DNA from: a virus
Lineage: Duplodnaviria > Heunggongvirae > Uroviricota > Caudoviricetes
DNA length: 19,823 bases
Strand: one strand, 5' to 3'
IMG/VR virus record: IMGVR_UViG_2585427795_000005
Below the pieces are notes generated by a model, which saw only the letters and a list, made by a program, of their open reading frames with translations, made no database searches and had not been told where the DNA came from. Shown piece by piece: positions 8,154 to 19,823 of this stretch. Numbering within the stretch: the stretch's first letter is position 1; each line of letters begins with the position of its first letter. Position numbers and translations under genes: made by a program.

Positions 8154-8606
8154 TCAGATACGTGCGGATGTGGCATTACCGTAATGACGGTGCTGACGGG
8201 CCACCCTATTGAAAAGTTGACGCGCCATTACCCAAGGCTGGTGCTCCCGGCGTTCCTTTTCGTCCTGCGTCATATAGAGTTCGTTCTGGAGTTTTTCATC
8301 AAACCGGCGCGGAGCGCGGCTACGGCGAAAGAATTCAGGATTCAGAGAGTGGATCTGAAATCTACGTGGGCGTGTACTGTCATCAATCAAAACAGACGAA
8401 TACTTAGACACAGCGATAGCCTTTAAGCGCAGATAAACATCGCGCTTATCGACATCCAGATGCGGGTATTCCTTTTCAAGAATTGCTGCGAGTTCTTTCG
8501 CTGATAGAAGAGATTTAGTGCGGATCATGTAATCCGCAATCTCGTACGATGTTATTCGTGAGTGATTTATTTCCATGAAGTGGCGTCCCTGCCAGTTAAG
8601 TAACAT
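8154..8606 (-). CDS. lpa: Lpa-like late promoter activator (P1 gene 10 position)
   Basis: 150-aa ORF immediately upstream of pacA; AGGTGA SD; minus-strand TTGACA at 8630..8635 and a C1 operator at 8677..8693 upstream. Identification is positional. Confidence 0.65.
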   Translation of the reverse strand: MLLNWQGRHFMEINHSRITSYEIADYMIRTKSLLSAKELAAILEKEYPHLDVDKRDVYLRLKAIAVSKYSSVLIDDSTRPRRFQIHSLNPEFFRRSRAPRRFDEKLQNELYMTQDEKERREHQPWVMARQLFNRVARQHRHYGNATSARI

Positions 8607-8676
8607 CCTGTCACCTACTGATTAGCCCATGTCAACTAATCAACGTCGAATATAATACCCTCGATTAAAGAAATAG

Positions 8677-8693
8677 CAATACATTAGAGCAAT
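8677..8693 (-). promoter_or_regulatory. C1 operator upstream of lpa
   Basis: Minus strand ATTGCTCTAATGTATTG (14/17), with an adjacent TAGCAAT partial site as at the ref operator. Confidence 0.6.
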
Positions 8694-8694
8694 T

Positions 8695-9738
8695 TTATCT
8701 AACACTCGACGAATGACTTGTGATAGCGCCGACTCCAAGCGCGTAATCAAAGAACAATCGTTGATGCATCGCCAGCCTACCGTGCGTCTTCTCCCAATTA
8801 TCGCGGTCACGCTCAATATCACGCTGGCATGACTGGCACAGAGGAATAGCATAAATGTCATGCGCGCATAATCGACTATGACGAACGATATAAGGCGTAA
8901 TGTGAGCGCCAGCTCCCGCAGCTCCACAGCCACAGCATGGACGGGAAGCCACAAAGTCCATGTACTCGGGCAATTTTAGCGATTGAAGTTTTGGTATCTT
9001 GAAATGCGCCATACCTGGGTCGGAGTCAACATCCACAGGGCATACTTTTGCACGCATCGGCGCGGCGCGTTCTTCCATCATCTGAACATATGCTGTAGCG
9101 CGATCGTCATACGGGCGAATATCCGCCTCTTTCAGAGGTCCGCTATCCTGCGGAGTAGCCTTCATCTTATTTATTGATATGCGGCAGACTTCTTCCGGCA
9201 TCAGGTGCATCATGTTGCGCATGAAAGCCCACCAGCACAGCTCCTGAATACTTAAATCATGGCTATTTGAAAGGCCCATTTCCTGACGGGCGACATCCAG
9301 TATCCAGTTAACGCGATTATTGTGCAGCGTTTCTTTCAGCTCATTAAAACCACGCATCCGGTAATGGTTATCGTGATGCCAGCACAACAACACCGCGCTA
9401 TTGTCTCGTTCAGCGTGGACAATATGGTTGTCACACCAACTACGATCTGCGGCCTGGCATTGACCCTCTTTCCTACGCAACCACGCCACCAGCGCGTCAA
9501 TTCCACCAATACGGCGAAACAGTTCATCGCTGTTAAAAAACGGCTGCAACGCCTCATTTGTTGCCATGGTTTGCTCGGTAACAACGAGGCCGTCTTCCAT
9601 GTGCTCGATTAACTCACGCGGCACCGGCTCCATAATAAATTTACGGCCAGCCTCCACCAGCTTTCTGACCTCCTGATCCACTTTGAACGTGGCGAGGCCA
9701 AGCTCTTTCTGTACAAAGGGAGTAATTACGGCTTTCAC
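8695..9738 (-). CDS. Hypothetical Cys/His-rich protein (347 aa) between doc and lpa; possible metal-binding or HNH-like nuclease motifs
   Basis: Long ORF with GTG start preceded by AAGGTG; motifs [10 protein letters not shown]...CWHHDNH and RPCCGCG...H...LCAHD...LCQSCQ. Confidence 0.6.
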
Positions 9739-9765
9739 ATCACACCTTTAATCACTGATTGGGCT

Positions 9766-9945
9766 TTATCTGCTGCCCGGCATTCTCTGTTTAAGCACAA
9801 CCATTTCCTGACGGCATAACACAGCAATAGCTGTCCTGGCACCAATTTGCTTACCAACCAGGTATTGCTTTACCTCGCGGCGACTCACGCCATCAAGAAG
9901 CATCTTTAACGCTTCACGGGACAATTTGTTGTATTTACGTGCCAT
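9766..9945 (-). CDS. Possible small HTH-like protein (59 aa from the ATG at 9945)
   Basis: MARKYNKLSREALKMLLDGVSRREVKQYLVGKQIGARTAIA... resembles a helix-turn-helix domain; starts 5 nt after the doc stop; no clear SD. Confidence 0.3.
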   Translation of the reverse strand: MARKYNKLSREALKMLLDGVSRREVKQYLVGKQIGARTAIAVLCRQEMVVLKQRMPGSR

Positions 9946-9949
9946 TAAT

Positions 9950-10330
9950 CTACTCCGCGGAACCATACAATCTACGTAACGTGTCGGCGACAGAAGATAC
10001 AGATATCTCTCCGGTCGCAGCCCCTACGGTAAGGTCTGCCAGTTCAGGTGAATCAAATACCTGCACCCCGTTACGGCGTAGAAATAACAGCGCACTGTTT
10101 AGCGCGGTACGCTTATTGGCATCATTGAATATATGCCCTCTCGCTGTAGCCACCAGGTAGGTGGCGGAGACTTCGAAAAGGTCGGTGATCTCTTCGTAGG
10201 CAACTCTGGCCTGAACTCTCCCGATAATGGCCTCTGCCCTACCTGGATCTGACATTCCCGGCAGGCCGCCGTAGCGGTTTATATTCGCATCATGAAGCGC
10301 AATAAGTTCTTCCGGTGATATATGCCTCAT
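9950..10330 (-). CDS. doc: Doc toxin (death on curing), Fic-fold kinase
   Basis: 126-aa translation [33 protein letters not shown]...; overlaps the phd stop by 1 nt. Confidence 0.92.
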
Positions 10331-10551
10331 TATCGGTTAACCAGTTCCTTGTTGGTGGAGTCCAGGGTGTCAAACAGGGATGCAAATTCAGCATCCAGCG
10401 CCGCTTTTTTGTAGGCTTCGAAAGTAGCCTTGCTGACAATTACTGCTGGCTCACGGCCTCTGCGGGTGATTTCAACCTCTTCCCCGGCCTCAACATTGTT
10501 GAGCACTTCAGAAAGGTTGCCGCGCGCGGTACGGAAGTTAATGGATTGCAT
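10330..10551 (-). CDS. phd: Phd antitoxin (prevents host death)
   Basis: 73-aa translation [39 protein letters not shown]...; GAGGT SD. Confidence 0.92.
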
Positions 10552-10727: not shown

Positions 10728-12286
10728 ATGAAAATGACAAGTATTCAACAACGTGCAGAGCTTCATCGTCAAATCTGGCAAATTGCTAACGATGTCAGAG
10801 GTTCGGTCGATGGATGGGATTTTAAGCAATACGTTCTGGGCGCGCTTTTCTACCGTTTTATCAGCGAAAATTTTTCCAGCTATATTGAAGCCGGTGATGA
10901 CAGCATCTGTTATGCGAAACTGGATGACAGCGTAATTACTGATGACATTAAAGACGATGCCATCAAAACCAAAGGCTACTTCATCTACCCAAGTCAGCTT
11001 TTCTGCAACGTAGCTGCGAAAGCAAATACCAATGACAGACTGAATGCAGATTTAAACAGCATCTTCGTTGCTATCGAAAGTTCTGCTTACGGTTACCCTT
11101 CAGAAGCTGACATCAAAGGTTTGTTTGCTGATTTCGATACCACCAGTAACCGCCTGGGTAACACCGTTAAGGATAAAAATACCCGCCTGGCCGCGGTTCT
11201 GAAAGGGGTTGAAGGATTAAAACTTGGCGACTTCAACGAACATCAGATTGACCTGTTCGGCGATGCCTATGAGTTCCTGATTTCTAACTATGCGGCGAAT
11301 GCCGGTAAGTCCGGCGGCGAGTTCTTTACACCGCAGCACGTCTCTAAGCTGATTGCACAACTGGCAATGCACGGCCAGACCCACGTTAACAAAATCTACG
11401 ACCCGGCAGCAGGTTCCGGTTCGCTGTTGTTGCAGGCTAAAAAACAGTTTGATGACCATATCATCGAAGAAGGCTTTTTTGGTCAGGAGATCAACCATAC
11501 GACCTATAACCTGGCGCGTATGAACATGTTTTTGCACAACATCAACTACGACAAGTTTGATATCAAGTTGGGCAATACGCTGACTGAGCCGCACTTCAGA
11601 GATGAAAAACCGTTTGATGCCATCGTTTCTAACCCGCCGTATTCGGTGAAATGGATTGGCAGCGATGACCCGACGCTGATTAACGATGAACGTTTTGCCC
11701 CGGCTGGCGTTCTGGCCCCCAAATCCAAAGCTGACTTTGCGTTTGTATTACATGCGCTGAACTATCTTTCTGCCAAAGGTCGTGCTGCGATTGTCTGCTT
11801 CCCGGGCATTTTTTACCGTGGCGGCGCGGAGCAGAAAATCCGTCAGTATCTGGTTGACAATAACTATGTCGAAACCGTGATTTCACTGGCACCGAACCTG
11901 TTCTTTGGCACCACCATTGCCGTAAATATTCTGGTGCTGTCTAAACATAAAACGGATACCAAAGTTCAGTTTATTGACGCCAGCGAACTGTTCAAAAAAG
12001 AGACTAACAACAACATCCTGACCGATGCCCATATCGAAAAAATTATGCAGGTATTTTCCAGCAAAGAAGATGTTGCCCATCTGGCAAAATCTGTCGCGTT
12101 TGAGGCCGTTGTCGCGAATGACTATAACCTGTCAGTGAGCAGCTATGTAGAAGTGAAAGATAACCGCGAAACTATCGATATTGCTGAGCTAAATGCTGAG
12201 CTGAAAACCACGGTCAGCAAAATCGACCAGTTGCGTAAAGATATTGATGCGATTGTGGCTGAAATTGAAGGCTGCGAGGTGCAGAA

Positions 12287-12290
<4 letters not shown>
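10728..12290 (+). CDS. hsdM: Type I restriction-modification methyltransferase subunit HsdM (type IC, EcoR124-like)
   Basis: 520-aa ORF with AdoMet motif DPAAGSG and catalytic NPPY; overlaps hsdS by ATGA. The true start may be the second ATG at 10734. Confidence 0.93.
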
Positions 12291-13528
<1,238 letters not shown>

Positions 13529-13649
13529 TTGACCATTATTACAGACCGAACCATCGTAACATCCGGTCTGTATATAGACTATTTTTTACGCGCCGGAAGT
13601 CACTCTTAACGCCTTTCCGGCCCTTGCCAGGCGGCACAAAGGATGCGCT

Positions 13650-16600
13650 ATGACTCATCAAACACACACCATTGCTGAATCCAATAACTTTATCGTCCTT
13701 GATAAGTACATCAAAGCTGAGCAAACAAGCGACAGCTACCAGAGCGAATCGGACCTGGAACGTGAACTGATTCAGGACCTGCGGAATCAGGGTTATGAAT
13801 TTATTTCCGTAAAATCACAGTCGGCAATGCTGTCTAATGTTCGGGAACAGCTTCAGAGCCTCAATGGTGTGATGTTTAATGACAGCGAGTGGCGGCGCTT
13901 CACGGAGCAGTATCTGGACAACCCCAGCGATGGTATTCTGGATAAAACCCGTAAAATCCATATCGACTATATCTGCGACTTTATTTTTGACGACGGGCGA
14001 CTTGAGAACATCTATTTGATAGATAAAAAGAATCTCATGCGCAATAAGGTGCAGATTATCCAGCAGTTTGAACAGACGGGTTCTCATGCTAACCGTTATG
14101 ACGTCACGATCCTGGTTAATGGTTTACCGCTGGTGCAAATCGAACTAAAAAAACGCGGGGTGGCGATTCGTGAGGCTTTCAACCAGATACATCGTTACAG
14201 TAAAGAGAGTTTTAACAACGAAAATTCCCTGTTTAAGTATCTGCAACTGTTTGTCATTTCTAACGGCACCGATACCCGTTATTTTGCCAACACGACAAAG
14301 CGCGATAAAAACAGTTTTGACTTCACCATGAATTGGGCGAAATCAGACAATACGCTGATTAAAGACCTCAAAGACTTTACCGCTACCTTTTTCCAGAAAC
14401 ATACTCTGCTGAATGTTCTGGTGAACTACAGCGTTTTTGACAGTAGTCAGACGCTACTGGTGATGCGACCGTACCAGATTGCCGCCACCGAGCGCATTCT
14501 GTGGAAAATTAAGAGTTCCTTTACAGCGAAGAACTGGTCAAAACCGGAAAGCGGTGGGTATATCTGGCACACTACCGGTTCTGGTAAAACCCTCACCAGC
14601 TTTAAAGCCGCGCGTCTGGCAACAGAGCTGGACTTTATTGATAAAGTCTTCTTTGTGGTCGACAGGAAAGACCTCGATTACCAGACCATGAAGGAATATC
14701 AGCGTTTTTCGCCAGACAGCGTCAACGGCTCGGAAAATACCGCAGGCCTTAAACGAAATCTGGATAAGGACGATAACAAAATTATCGTCACTACTATTCA
14801 GAAACTCAATAACCTGATGAAAGCAGAAAGCGACCTGCCTGTATACAATCAGCAAGTGGTGTTTATATTTGATGAATGTCACCGCAGCCAGTTTGGAGAA
14901 GCGCAGAAAAACCTGAAGAAGAAATTCAAACGCTATTATCAGTTTGGTTTTACCGGCACCCCTATTTTCCCGGAAAATGCCTTAGGCTCAGAAACGACCG
15001 CCAGCGTATTTGGTCGTGAATTGCATTCGTATGTAATTACCGATGCGATTCGTGATGAAAAAGTGCTCAAATTCAAGGTGGACTACAACGATGTGCGGCC
15101 ACAGTTTAAGTCTTTAGAGACAGAAACTGACGAGAAAAAACTAAGTGCGGCTGAAAATCAGCAGGCGTTTCTTCATCCCATGCGTATACAGGAAATCACG
15201 CAATATATTCTGAATAATTTCCGCCAGAAAACCCACCGCACCTTCCCTGGCTCAAAAGGTTTTAATGCTATGTTGGCAGTGAGCAGCGTGGATGCTGCAA
15301 AAGCCTATTACGCGGCGTTTAAACGGTTACAAGAGGAAGCAGCTAATAAATCGGCTACCTATAAACCGCTGCGTGTTGCGACAATCTTCTCCTTTGCTGC
15401 CAATGAAGAACAAAATGCCATTGGTGAAATTTCCGATGAAACTTTTGATACCAGCGCAATGGACAGCAGTGCTAAAGAGTTTCTTGACGCTGCAATTCGT
15501 GAGTATAACAGCTATTTTAAAACTAACTTCAGCACCGACGGTAACGGTTTTCAGAACTACTATCGCGATTTAGCCCAACGGGTTAAAAATCAGGATATCG
15601 ATCTGTTAATTGTCGTGGGGATGTTTTTAACTGGCTTCGATGCTCCAACATTGAACACGCTATTCGTCGATAAAAACCTGCGTTTTCACGGCTTGATGCA
15701 GGCATTTTCCCGCACCAACCGTATTTATGATGCAACTAAAACCTTCGGTAATATCGTCACTTTCCGGGATCTGGAACGCTCAACTATTGATGCCATAACG
15801 CTGTTTGGTGACAAAAACACCAAAAATGTGGTTTTAGAAAAGAGTTATGCAGAGTATATGGAAGGCTTTACTGATGCTGCCACTGGTGAAGCTAAGCGCG
15901 GCTTTATGGCAGTAGTTTCAGAACTGGAACAACGGTTCCCTGACCCTGCCAGTATTGAAAGTGAAAAAGAGAAGAAAGACTTCGTTAAACTGTTTGGTGA
16001 ATACCTGCGTGCCGAGAACATCCTGCAAAACTATGATGAATTTGCCACGCTGAAAGCCCTGCAACAAATCGATCTTAGCGATCCTGTTGCAGTAGAAAAA
16101 TTCAAAGCAGAACATTATGTGGATGATGAAAAGCTCGCTGAATTGCAAACAATTCGTCTCCCTGCTGATCGCAAGATTCAGGATTATCGTTCTGCCTATA
16201 ACGATATTCGCGACTGGCAGCGCCGTGAGAAAGAAGCTGAGAAAAAAGAGAAATCAACCACTGACTGGGATGACGTAGTTTTTGAGGTCGATTTGCTGAA
16301 GTCTCAGGAAATAAACCTGGATTATATCCTTGGACTGATTTTCGAACACAACAGACAAAATAAAGGCAAGGGCGAAATGATCGAAGAGGTTAAACGCTTA
16401 ATTCGTTCAAGCCTAGGGAACCGTGCTAAAGAGGGCCTGGTGGTCGATTTTATTCAGCAAACGAACCTGGATGATTTACCGGACAAAGCCAGCATCATTG
16501 ACGCATTCTTTACGTTTGCTCAACGCGAACAGCAACGTGAAGCAGAAGCATTGATAAAAGAAGAAAATCTCAATGAAGATGCAGCAAAACGCTATATTCG

Positions 16601-16766
16601 CACGTCTTTAAAACGCGAATATGCCACAGAAAATGGCACAGAATTAAACGAAACATTACCAAAACTTAGTCCGTTGAATCCGCAATATAAAACGAAAAAA
16701 CAGGCAGTTTTCCAGAAAATCGTCTCGTTTATTGAGAAGTTTAAAGGCGTAGGCGGAAAAATATAG
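13650..16766 (+). CDS. hsdR: Type I R-M restriction subunit HsdR (type IC)
   Basis: 1038 aa; nuclease motif region (D...IELK), Walker A TGSGKT, DECH box; AAAGGA SD; separated from hsdS by a 121-bp gap consistent with its own promoter. Confidence 0.93.
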
Positions 16767-17014: not shown

Positions 17015-17031
17015 TGATTTATTAGAGCAAT
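17015..17031 (-). promoter_or_regulatory. C1 operator upstream of the 28-aa ORF
   Basis: Minus strand ATTGCTCTAATAAATCA (15/17), followed by TTTAAAAC; overlaps the stop codon of the upstream ORF. Confidence 0.65.
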
Positions 17032-17537
17032 TATTGTTGATGAAGAAGCGCATTTTCATACTCCCTGACCATTAACGTAAGCACGCCGTGCCTCCTGAAA
17101 ACACGCGCCACTTCAATCTTATCTTCCAGCGCGAACGCAATTTTGCTTATACCAATTTTCTTAAGGAGATCAATCTTTGCTGGGCCGTCATTTCTGTCAT
17201 CGGTGGCAGGACGCATAGATAGCAAAGGCTCAGCCCCGTTTGTTACGTACTTCCGCAGCCAGGCTCGTGTTTTATCCCTTGCGATCTCACAGCGCCCGGT
17301 TACAAACCAGACCGTGTAAACGTTAAATAACTGGCGCACCATATCAATAACTGGAGTGATTGGAGTATCGGTGTCACAGGCGAGATTAAACTCGTTCCAG
17401 TCCTTTGTTAATGCACCTTTACCTGGTGGCGGAAGCAAATGCAGTCTGTCTTCAGTTGCCTCTGATATTGTTCCATCAATATCGACTATGACGATATACG
17501 GACGTTCCTGGTGTGCATGTTTATTGAAAATACTCAA
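17031..17537 (-). CDS. HAD-superfamily phosphatase-like protein (168 aa), possibly a polynucleotide 3'-phosphatase or acid phosphatase
   Basis: HAD motif I IVIVDIDGT (DxDGT), motif II VWFVTGR, lysine and DD motifs (ARDKTRAW, ATDDRND); TTG start 4 nt after a strong AGGAGG SD. Confidence 0.6.
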   Translation of the reverse strand: MSIFNKHAHQERPYIVIVDIDGTISEATEDRLHLLPPPGKGALTKDWNEFNLACDTDTPITPVIDMVRQLFNVYTVWFVTGRCEIARDKTRAWLRKYVTNGAEPLLSMRPATDDRNDGPAKIDLLKKIGISKIAFALEDKIEVARVFRRHGVLTLMVREYENALLHQQ

Positions 17538-17609: not shown

Positions 17610-18725
17610 TCAGCGGACGTAAATAGTGCCGCCGTTCTCTTTTTCCCATGCATCGCTACGTGCATAGCAAACATCGAGAAGTCTTCTTGCCGCTGTTTCC
17701 TCTAAACCCAATTCGACAACCAACTGCTCATGACGGCGGGTAACCACATCAAACAGAGTATGCAACCCTTTAGTTGCCAGATCATCAATGAATTCCGGTT
17801 CGAACGGCAGCTCTGCATCTGCCAACATAACCTCTTGCGCCCACTCAACTCGACGGACCAATTCCGGGCGGCGGCTTTCCATCTCTTTACAGATCAATTC
17901 ATGGAAGAACTCTACCCAACCTTCCGGCTGGAACTCGCGGAAAATGGCCAACGGCTGGAAGTTTGGCATCAACCATTCGTTGATTCGGATATCAATGGCA
18001 TAGCCCATGTCGCAGCAGAACTGATAAGCAAAGTCCAGCTTAGAAACGATATAAGGACGCTCGTTATTGAACTCTTTAGGCGATGAGATCCCATAAGCCA
18101 GGAGGCGCGGGAAGAAGGAGATTTGCCCTAACGTCGGATGAAGTTTGCTTGCAGGGAAACGGCGCTCAGTAATGCCATACATTTCCTTCTTGAGCGTCGC
18201 AAATTTGGCATTCTCATTAACCAGCGCGGTAACCTCTGCTTTTTTATTAGCAAATGCCACGCGCGCTTCGCTTGCATCTTTAATAGTTTTTTTGAGCTGT
18301 TGGTTAAGGTCGGCGACCTGCTTACGCAGTTCCTGTCGCTCGCTTTTAGCTTTGTTATAGCGTTTCTCAAGGTTAAAAGGATCAAGTTTCATGATCTCTT
18401 TATATTGAGATTTTAGCGTTGAAATCTGTGAGTTCCGCAGTTCAACCATCGCGGTCATTTCATTGAGTTTTGTTTCCAGCTCAATGCTTATACGTTCGGC
18501 ATTATCAGCACGCTGGTTGGCGTCATGCGTCGCATCGTCGATCGCGTCCTGTTGCTGGCGTTTCAAATGTTCAATTTGCAGCTGAAGCTCTTCAATTTCT
18601 TTACCCTTCAGACCGAGATCCAACTGCATATTTTCAGCTGCATCTACCAGGGAGTTATGGCTATCAGCTTCTGCGTTATAAACATCAATAAGCTGTGCGT
18701 GAAGCATCTCCGCTGACTGAACCAC
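17610..18725 (-). CDS. Hypothetical protein (371 aa): N-terminal coiled-coil region and an uncharacterised C-terminal domain
   Basis: Long ORF; N-terminal half rich in heptad-like E/K/Q/L segments. Start uncertain (GTG at 18725 or ATG at 18707, neither with a good SD). Confidence 0.6.
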   Translation of the reverse strand: MVQSAEMLHAQLIDVYNAEADSHNSLVDAAENMQLDLGLKGKEIEELQLQIEHLKRQQQDAIDDATHDANQRADNAERISIELETKLNEMTAMVELRNSQISTLKSQYKEIMKLDPFNLEKRYNKAKSERQELRKQVADLNQQLKKTIKDASEARVAFANKKAEVTALVNENAKFATLKKEMYGITERRFPASKLHPTLGQISFFPRLLAYGISSPKEFNNERPYIVSKLDFAYQFCCDMGYAIDIRINEWLMPNFQPLAIFREFQPEGWVEFFHELICKEMESRRPELVRRVEWAQEVMLADAELPFEPEFIDDLATKGLHTLFDVVTRRHEQLVVELGLEETAARRLLDVCYARSDAWEKENGGTIYVR

Positions 18726-19383: not shown

Positions 19384-19823
19384 GGTAATGACTCCAACTT
19401 ATTGATAGTGTTTTATGTTCAGATAATGCCCGATGACTTTGTCATGCAGCTCCACCGATTTTGAGAACGACAGCGACTTCCGTCCCAGCCGTGCCAGGTG
19501 CTGCCTCAGATTCAGGTTATGCCGCTCAATTCGCTGCGTATATCGCTTGCTGATTACGTGCAGCTTTCCCTTCAGGCGGGATTCATACAGCGGCCAGCCA
19601 TCCGTCATCCATATCACCACGTCAAAGGGTGACAGCAGGCTCATAAGACGCCCCAGCGTCGCCATAGTGCGTTCACCGAATACGTGCGCAACAACCGTCT
19701 TCCGGAGCCTGTCATACGCGTAAAACAGCCAGCGCTGGCGCGATTTAGCCCCGACGTATCCCCACTGTTCGTCCATTTCCGCGCAGACGATGACGTCACT
19801 GCCCGGCTGTATGCGCGAGGTTA
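19384..19823 (-). mobile_element. IS1 insertion sequence, second partial copy (continues right of the window), a divergent isoform
   Basis: Terminal repeat GGTAATGACTCCAACTTATTGATAGTG from 19384; InsB ORF on the minus strand; same orientation as the left copy. Confidence 0.93.
19399..19823 (-). CDS. insB: IS1 InsB (transposase catalytic part), 5' end outside the window
   Basis: Translation ...[125 protein letters not shown]. Confidence 0.9.

Follow-up and report, generated by a model that had tools for sequence, protein, structure and literature searches.

Phage P1 and its relatives carry two genes, pdcA and pdcB, between the phd/doc addiction module and lpa, the gene of the late promoter activator, and this locus raises the question of what the two proteins are and whether they form one unit. 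In this study, we addressed it on a 19,823-nucleotide stretch of Caudoviricetes DNA (IMG/VR record IMGVR_UViG_2585427795_000005; called the window below), in which the two genes occupy positions 8,695 to 9,945. Our analyses suggested that PdcB of the P1 clade is, on the simplest reading of its sequence, a catalytically dead HNH protein that has stayed conserved and functional, and they demonstrated that pdcA and pdcB travel with different modules.

The initial annotation had found no family that it could name for either open reading frame (ORF); both are long-annotated P1 genes, and PdcB is a member of a known family. The 2.5 kb from lpa to phd matched P1 (AF234172) at 98.8% nucleotide identity with 100% coverage in one ungapped piece, and the same interval matched P7 and SJ46 at 98.6–98.8%; the comparison with the doc-lpa interval of P1 and P7 that had been proposed for this locus thus returned the same genes. 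Relative to P1 PdcB (AAQ14077) and PdcA (AAQ14076), and also to P7 Upf95.7, the gene order, lengths, start codons and the Olpa/Plpa junction are the same and only point substitutions occur, 14 nt in pdcB and 3 in pdcA, whereas upstream of phd the window has a type I hsd cassette and P1 has humD. Nor did the P1 counterpart prove to be a characterised protein with a housekeeping function and neither a nuclease nor a zinc fold, the finding that had been named beforehand as speaking against a zinc-binding or HNH-like protein. P1 is a mainstay of bacterial genetics, and phage-plasmids of its kind are common vehicles for resistance genes, yet both ORFs still stand in the P1 reference record as 'unknown protein function'. 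A literature search found no paper on the function of PdcB, of its Qin prophage relative YdfU or of DUF968, and no biochemical data for any DUF968 protein. Genetic data have been published: knock-down of pdcB by CRISPR interference left an efficiency of plating of 0.68, lpa is essential, and a table in the same paper cites a deletion survey in which pdcA and pdcB are given as non-essential (PMC10695390); a pdcB::kan phage is viable and forms stable lysogens (PMC10067587, PMC10999674).

Fold, metal-site clusters and active-site positions of PdcB

PdcB is a clear member of the Pfam family DUF968 (PF06147), as its residues 161–337 cover profile positions 1–171 of 171 with an E value of 4.6e-50 and a score of 170.4 bits against a gathering threshold of 27.8. 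PHROG 96 matched the full length of the protein (E 2e-128), and residues 1–134 matched phrog_11007 ('unknown function'). DUF968 and DUF1364/YbcO together constitute group 7 of the His-Me finger proteins (PMC5714182), and hhalign aligned PdcB with YbcO at E 1e-5 and 82% probability. A scan of 1.8 billion representative proteins yielded 133 relatives, many of them full-length at 21–39% identity, and 36 full-length homologues (21–69% identity) were assembled in an alignment, A1, which was also used for the AlphaFold2 (AF2) model. The model had a mean predicted local distance difference test score (pLDDT) of 87.7 and comprised four parts (Table 1), with two beta-beta-alpha units: the first holds the first Cys/His cluster (strands 106–111 and 114–119, helix 120–129), and the second lies in the C-terminal part (strands 280–284 and 297–301, helix 302–319). 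The N-terminal domain (residues 1–90) was conserved across the whole family in A1, and the helical middle carries a K-E-[AS]-D-I motif at 203–207, of which the P1 clade, a set of 16 sequences with 38–99% identity, keeps E204, D206 and I207 without exception.

PdcB contains 12 Cys and 16 His among its 347 residues, roughly 2–3 times the content of a typical E. coli protein. The Cys/His strings noticed in the initial annotation are present as quoted, with CWHHDNH at 119–125 closing a first cluster at 101–125, and CCGCG (268–272), LCAHD (290–294) and LCQSCQ (300–305) forming the second. In the first cluster, C94 was conserved in 34 of the 36 homologues, C119 in 35 and W120 in 34, with Cys/His swaps at position 102 (C in 22, H in 12) and position 122 (H in 28, C in 7). 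In the zinc knuckle, C268 was found in 36/36, C271 in 27/36 and C301 in 29/36, and position 304 was Cys in 16 and His in 11; throughout the P1 clade C268, C271, C301 and C304 are all Cys. Overall, C94, C119, W120, C268, D294 and P299 were invariant or nearly so. Positions 102, 122 and 304 exchange only Cys for His or the reverse, which is a metal-ligand signature, and the clusters are therefore not a product of chance. As modelled, PdcB has the fold and the zinc knuckle expected of the His-Me (HNH) finger superfamily, with zinc presumably bound.

The active site is different. In this superfamily a His that closes strand 1, often after D, E or H, serves as the general base, and the metal ligands are an N or H in the first helical turn and a polar residue at +4 (PMC5714182). 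Canonical DUF968 proteins read C-x-x-C-G ... D-D-P-H-H-x-I-G-H-G ... K-A-H-D ... P-L-C-R-x-[CH]-H-x-E-L-H, the PdcB counterpart reads C-C-G-C-G ... I-T-P-Y-I-V-R-H-S ... C-A-H-D, and the P1 clade as a whole conforms to T/S-P-Y/F-[ILM] ... C-x-x-C-Q ... variable, so that the residues of PdcB at the five catalytic positions are T281, Y283, I284, Q305 and E309. Positions 283, 284, 305 and 309 were His in 31–32 of the 36 sequences of A1, and the exceptions were exactly P1 PdcB and its three nearest relatives. When 81 C-terminal domains were realigned to the profile, HH..H..H was present in all sequences outside the P1 clade but one (P0168, a partial exception) and missing from every member within it. 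No P1-clade member has a His at the end of strand 1, and the helix, where the family has H305 and H309 (31/36 each), has Q305 and E309 in PdcB. The clade retains C268, C271, C301, C304, H293-D294 and P299 as invariants. Several residues that might have taken over vary inside it, namely H279 (H, R, N, Q or deleted), H287 (H, N or S), E309 (E, A, V, S or R) and Y283, which is Phe in the homologues P0007 and P0121, and this variation argues against a substitute base or a tyrosine nucleophile of the PacI type.

The gene is not decaying. The dN of pdcB was 0.15–0.25, and 0.2–0.25 against homologues 65–71% identical, with dS saturated, and dN/dS was about 0.08–0.14 where computable; the HNH segment, with a ratio of 0.07 where computable (against the locus L013), was no less constrained than the rest. 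Among close relatives, pN/pS was 0.15 for pdcB, 0.11 for phd and 0.12 for doc. The gene is under strong purifying selection, with dN/dS about 0.1. The fold is kept and the catalytic residues are gone, which makes the label 'HNH endonuclease' that PdcB bears in RefSeq and PHROG 96 doubtful and probably misleading. Of the suggestion in the initial annotation that the protein is zinc-binding or HNH-like, the HNH fold was predicted well, and the nuclease part was weakened, as the P1 clade has substitutions at both catalytic His, at the Asp before them and at the two His of the helix.

We favour, with moderate confidence, the reading that PdcB is an accessory protein with a zinc-stabilised fold, which would bind nucleic acid or a partner and probably no longer cuts. 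Under this reading the interval would consist of two unrelated accessory genes of a P1-type phage-plasmid. PdcB would combine an N-terminal beta/alpha domain, a structural zinc module, a helical linker and a C-terminal zinc-stabilised HNH finger; lambdoid DUF968 members with an intact site would most likely be nucleases acting on recombination or replication intermediates, whereas the P1 lineage has replaced the strand-1 acidic residue, the His pair and both helix His while retaining the zinc Cys, H293-D294 and P299. P1 PdcB would then be nuclease-dead and still bind nucleic acid (probably DNA that is branched or single-stranded) or another protein, in a non-essential accessory role during early infection or in the lysogen.

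An active HNH endonuclease that cuts DNA, such as recombination intermediates, through non-canonical residues (H293/D294, Y283, E309 or H121, H122, D123, N124, H125) would explain why the fold and zinc scaffold are intact, why H293, D294, H122 and D123 are invariant in the clade and why selection on the gene is strong, and the intact-motif relatives, which adjoin RusA, are plausibly nucleases. This is the main rival of our reading, and we regard it as unlikely, since five conserved active-site positions were lost together across the clade, two of the candidate replacements vary within the clade as described above, and in A1 no family member shows a conserved His where strand 1 of the N-terminal module ends, nor does this module bear any significant likeness to the HNH module.

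Some points weigh against a non-cutting PdcB as well. A Tyr does replace the catalytic His in one HNH enzyme, PacI (PMC5714182), and H293-D294 is still invariant in the clade. The roles assigned to the lost residues draw on superfamily analogy and on the YbcO alignment, and the geometry of the zinc sites and the exact place of residues 283 and 284 are deduced from alignment and secondary structure, so both are best taken as probable. Charge gives DNA binding no support and no argument against it either, the isoelectric point being ~7.1 for the HNH segment and 6.5 for the whole protein, and a Foldseek search of the model against the PDB gave no significant match (best E 0.19).

Other searches placed PdcB in no further family. 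Neither its sequence nor its family profile matched any PDB chain, NCBIfam returned nothing meaningful, and the PADLOC defence-system models matched neither PdcB nor PdcA at E <= 0.1. The two Cys/His modules were considered as an internal duplication; hhalign set them in register (LCWHHD against LCQSCQ) at a probability of 1% and E 0.048, and the idea is unsupported. The Orf-like N-terminal domain of DUF968 proposed by Curtis et al. (2014) did not appear in the model, in which residues 161–255 are all-helical. In five database proteins (P0136, P0148, P0178, P0179 and P0231) a PdcB-like N-terminus is joined to portal, tail-tip (GpJ) or tail-collar domains; we judged them to be, in all likelihood, chimeras that arose when prophage regions were assembled, and not true fusions, and P0136, P0148, P0178 and P0179 were left out of the PdcB analysis.

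PdcA, a probable small protein next to doc

PdcA is probably a real small protein. Its ATG is the fifth base after the doc stop, as the initial annotation had it, and GGAG stands seven bases before this ATG and is conserved in P1, D6 and the loci L011 and L012, while nothing of the kind precedes the upstream ATG at 9966. The 59-position profile PHROG 3345 matched the 59-residue form, which is also the length of most database homologues, many of them named PdcA by NCBI. We recovered 99 homologues, all at least 75% identical over the aligned region, and those with a source name or organism came from Escherichia or Salmonella P1-like DNA; a scan of 185,579 species-representative genomes found two loci only. 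The AF2 model, made from a shallow alignment, predicted three helices with a pLDDT of 82. The protein had no Pfam match even at E 10, no meaningful PDB match and no match to any helix-turn-helix (HTH) family profile, and its sole NCBIfam match, to a transposase N-terminal domain at E 0.033, was below threshold. The HTH likeness noted in the initial annotation is thus putative, and a role in DNA binding or regulation would be a guess.

The constraint on pdcA is weak, at 8 synonymous and 11 non-synonymous changes (n = 19) and a pN/pS of 0.39 against 0.11–0.15 for the neighbours, and frameshifted variants are common in the databases, shifted at different points into an alternative frame ending ...KGVM; both facts count against a functional PdcA. 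Together with the lack of Pfam, NCBIfam and PDB matches and with a recovery limited to P1-like or P1-derived DNA of a few enterobacterial genera (chiefly Escherichia and Salmonella), they would suit a spurious ORF, conserved all the same, in the 3' untranslated portion of the phd-doc cassette. We consider this rather improbable, because the Shine-Dalgarno (SD) sequence is good, conserved and at the right spacing, the 59/65-residue frame is intact in most of the 99 homologues, the three-helix fold was predicted with confidence, and synonymous changes are in excess (binomial P = 0.04). On our preferred reading PdcA would be a small protein of three helices, with an SD of its own and translation from 5 nt past doc, as part of a mobile phd-doc cassette.

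The alternative frame itself (9735–9857, minus) runs on for 40 codons to its ...KGVM* end, where it overlaps the GTG start of pdcB (GTGATGTGA). At least 15 clusters of homologues (within P0075–P0119), most of 69 aa, are PdcA N-termini frameshifted into it, and they may reflect decay, errors in sequencing or a coupling variant. The 14-nt sequence CCATTTCCTGACGG forms a perfect direct repeat, at 9276–9289 in pdcB and 9801–9814 in pdcA, which is probably due to chance.

Module membership and layout of the locus

The initial annotation had described the two ORFs together, and their distributions show that they are not one unit: pdcA is appended to the phd-doc addiction cassette, whereas a conserved lpa-pac block begins with pdcB. 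In divergent P1-like phage-plasmids, with PdcB 65–71% identical, the order pdcB-lpa-pacA-pacB-c1 was kept, and the genes upstream of pdcB were unrelated, without phd, doc or pdcA. The lpa gene followed pdcB directly in 7/7 P1-like loci with a clade pdcB (L004, L013–L018; not in L002/L003), and a 39%-identical PdcB homologue on a metagenomic contig was likewise followed by an Lpa homologue. Phage D6, conversely, carries phd-doc-pdcA at 97% identity without pdcB, its homology with P1 stopping at the pdcA stop codon. Among 1246 plasmid records with a match, about half had only phd-doc-pdcA and the first ~91 codons of pdcB, examples being IncF conjugative plasmids in which a type I hsdM adjoins phd, as in the window. 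The gene pdcA was seen only downstream of doc and moves with phd-doc, yet phd-doc exists without pdcA, as in a D6-like plasmid. These separate distributions indicate that the 'post-doc' name lumps genes of different mobile modules. What this study adds to the earlier record is the loss of the active site in the P1 clade under continued selection, the doubt about the database label, and the assignment of the two genes to different modules.

The setting described in the initial annotation, between the phd/doc addiction module and lpa and next to a C1 operator, was borne out by Pfam matches, by the offset to the P1 annotation and by promoter hexamers (Table 1). On the minus strand of the window the order is phd, doc, pdcA, pdcB, a 42-bp regulatory stretch, lpa and pacA; Olpa and Plpa begin one base past the pdcB stop, and the Plpa hexamers TTGCTA/TATTAT at 8679–8652 were found independently of the annotation transfer. 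An Rfam search of the window gave no match.

Table 1. Features of the pdcA-pdcB locus and predicted parts of PdcB (positions in the window)
Feature	Position	Strand	Details
phd	10330-10551	minus	Pfam PhdYeFM_antitox; P1 annotation
doc	9950-10330	minus	Pfam Fic/DOC; P1 annotation; TAG 9952-9950
GGAG Shine-Dalgarno for 59-aa pdcA	9953..9956	minus	in last doc codons; CGGAGTAGATTAATG
pdcA CDS	9766..9945	minus	59 aa; ATG 9945; alternative 66-aa start at 9966 overlaps doc
pdcB CDS	8695..9738	minus	347 aa; GTG start; TAA stop abutting Olpa; ORF listing and P1 match
PdcB residues 1-90, N-terminal beta/alpha domain	9469..9738	minus	strands 2-4, 7-10, 15-18, 50-52; helices 22-29, 57-90
PdcB residues 91-160, putative structural zinc module	9259..9468	minus	C94/C102/C119/H122; CWHHDN
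PdcB residues 161-255, helical middle	8974..9258	minus	N-terminal half of DUF968 profile
PdcB residues 256-340, predicted C-terminal His-Me (HNH) finger	8719..8973	minus	
C1 operator Olpa	8677-8693	minus	17 bp; transferred from P1 annotation, no indels
Sigma-70 promoter Plpa	-35 at 8674-8679; -10 at 8652-8657	minus	overlaps Olpa
lpa, late promoter activator	8154..8606	minus	PF25716, E 7e-57
pacA	8068-6875	minus	

Another reading considered was that pdcA and pdcB extend the phd-doc operon functionally, with PdcA as an HTH regulator and PdcB as an effector on expression of the toxin-antitoxin genes or on killing. The four genes phd, doc, pdcA and pdcB share one orientation with gaps of 4 nt (doc-pdcA) and 27 nt (pdcA-pdcB), a search for terminator-like sites gave none between doc and lpa (the one minus-strand match lies inside doc), and D6 and hundreds of IncF plasmids keep pdcA together with phd-doc. 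We hold this account to be very unlikely: divergent P1-like plasmids have pdcB but lack phd, doc and pdcA, the relatives of pdcB are lambdoid nin-region genes, phd-doc occurs without pdcA, the IncF copies retain only the ~91 codons of pdcB, and PdcA matches no HTH family. Moreover, phd and doc alone are reportedly enough to give addiction, as Lehnherr et al. are said to have found in 1993. The match inside doc is a terminator-like hairpin with a T-run at 10091–10106 (minus) and is probably a chance occurrence.

Several further arrangements were observed around these genes. In about half of the 1246 plasmids (for example L023: 2501–3677, and H55–H67) the homology breaks at window position ~9461–9464, so that pdcB is cut off at a fixed point after ~91 codons, with pdcA intact. 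Two homologues, P0112 and P0113, are natural in-frame deletions in which PdcA residues 1–29 are joined to PdcB from residue 56. The motif-degenerate, 38%-identical P0121 is found in a different phage-plasmid (L002: 3886–5671; L003: 904–1482), not adjoining lpa; its gene follows a NinI-like metallophosphatase gene in an array of Ead/Ea22 and DUF551 genes, and a RecA_dep_nuc (Ref-like) gene is nearby. Divergent to phd, at 10728–16766 (+), the window carries a complete type I restriction-modification (R-M) cassette, encoding HsdM (520 aa), HsdS (413 aa) and HsdR (1038 aa, with an EcoR124_C domain), where P1 has humD-lxr-hot; the same arrangement is present in phages phi456 and vB_EcoM-673R5, and hsdMS-phd-doc-pdcA with a 'pdcB fragment is also found on IncF conjugative plasmids. 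The right-hand end of the window holds an IS1 transposase ORF at 19399–19776 (minus; PF03400, E 3e-74), and between it and the R-M cassette lie pap (17031–17537, PNKP phosphatase-like) and pmgS (17610–18725).

Intact-motif relatives and comparison with known systems

In lambdoid prophages the full-length homologues close the early nin-type operon at its 3' end, just before Q, with or without RusA between. We surveyed 80 IMG/VR loci (L029–L108), close relatives of one lambdoid subtype and hence a redundant sample, 78 of them with downstream sequence. RusA was the next ORF in 51 of the 78, lying between the YdfU-like gene and Q, and in 69 a Q gene came next, from four families (PF03589, PF06323, PF06530 and DUF1133). 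A sharp mosaic boundary runs just downstream of the DUF968/rusA genes in these loci, where a YdfU-like gene, often with rusA, was nearly constant (82–97% identity) beside four unrelated Q families. It has been suggested that His-Me group 7 proteins act in recombination (PMC5714182). The position next to RusA and last before Q, together with an intact HNH motif, points to a protein that in lambdoid prophages is most likely a nuclease on recombination or replication intermediates.

The P1 lineage could have gone further and exapted an HNH nuclease into a dead, double-zinc DNA-binder at the early-to-late transition, by analogy with the Smad MH1 domain, although we think this improbable. If it were true, dead PdcB would bind branched intermediates or the Olpa/Plpa region 1 nt past its stop codon, and the placement of DUF968 genes before five unrelated late regulators (Lpa and four Q) would mean functional coupling and not mere module order. 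That PdcB/YdfU-like proteins act in the early-to-late switch itself, for example through contacts with DNA or RNA close to the promoter of the late regulator, is the least probable account, for while the position 5' of the regulator holds across Lpa and the four Q families, the pdcB stop adjoins Olpa and an inactive DNA-binding His-Me finger exists in Smad MH1 (PMC5714182), lpa has its own C1-controlled promoter, pdcB knock-down or insertion brings no plating or lysogeny defect, so that viable pdcB mutants beside an essential lpa argue against a required role in late activation, RusA often intervenes between the YdfU-like gene and Q, and the nin-end position is common to RusA and NinG-type genes, which makes modular gene order the simpler account.

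No major concept is changed by these results. The genes pdcA and pdcB are dispensable for plaque formation, and the pdcB insertion mutant still gives stable lysogens. The DUF968/YdfU family does offer a natural pair of active-looking and dead-looking versions under purifying selection, and with it a system for studying nuclease-dead HNH proteins in phages.

Among known systems, Qin YdfU and its lambdoid relatives were compared through P0134 and P0123-type homologues. They share the four-part architecture over the full length at 21–33% identity, with both putative zinc modules, the K-E-x-D motif and a W-E-x-x-H-G motif, and like PdcB they sit directly upstream of a late-gene regulator; they differ in keeping D-P-H-H ... 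H ... H where the P1 clade has its degenerate pattern, and the regulator beside them is Q, often with RusA between, where that beside PdcB is Lpa. YbcO of the DLP12 prophage (DUF1364, PDB 3g27) is a 96-aa single domain that keeps A-H in strand 1 and C-H-D-E-I-D in the helix, whereas in PdcB those His and Asp residues are missing and three further domains are present. Ref, the RecA-dependent HNH nuclease of P1 (PDB 3plw), is encoded in the window as well (1168–1728, minus); it is 9% identical to PdcB, keeps its His residues, and differs in N-terminal region and genomic position. Ref is said, from work by Gruenig et al. in 2011, to be an active nuclease. Lambda Rap/NinG and RusA are phage branch-specific nucleases in the same slot, at the nin end before Q; they show no detectable sequence homology to PdcB, the RusA fold is different, and their likeness to DUF968 is positional and, for canonical DUF968 proteins, presumably functional. 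Finally, Smad MH1 (His-Me group 16) has lost the catalytic His and kept the structural zinc and DNA binding (PMC5714182), and so offers a precedent for a finger of this kind; MH1 is eukaryotic, has no sequence relation to PdcB and bears other decorations, and the analogy is one of principle only.

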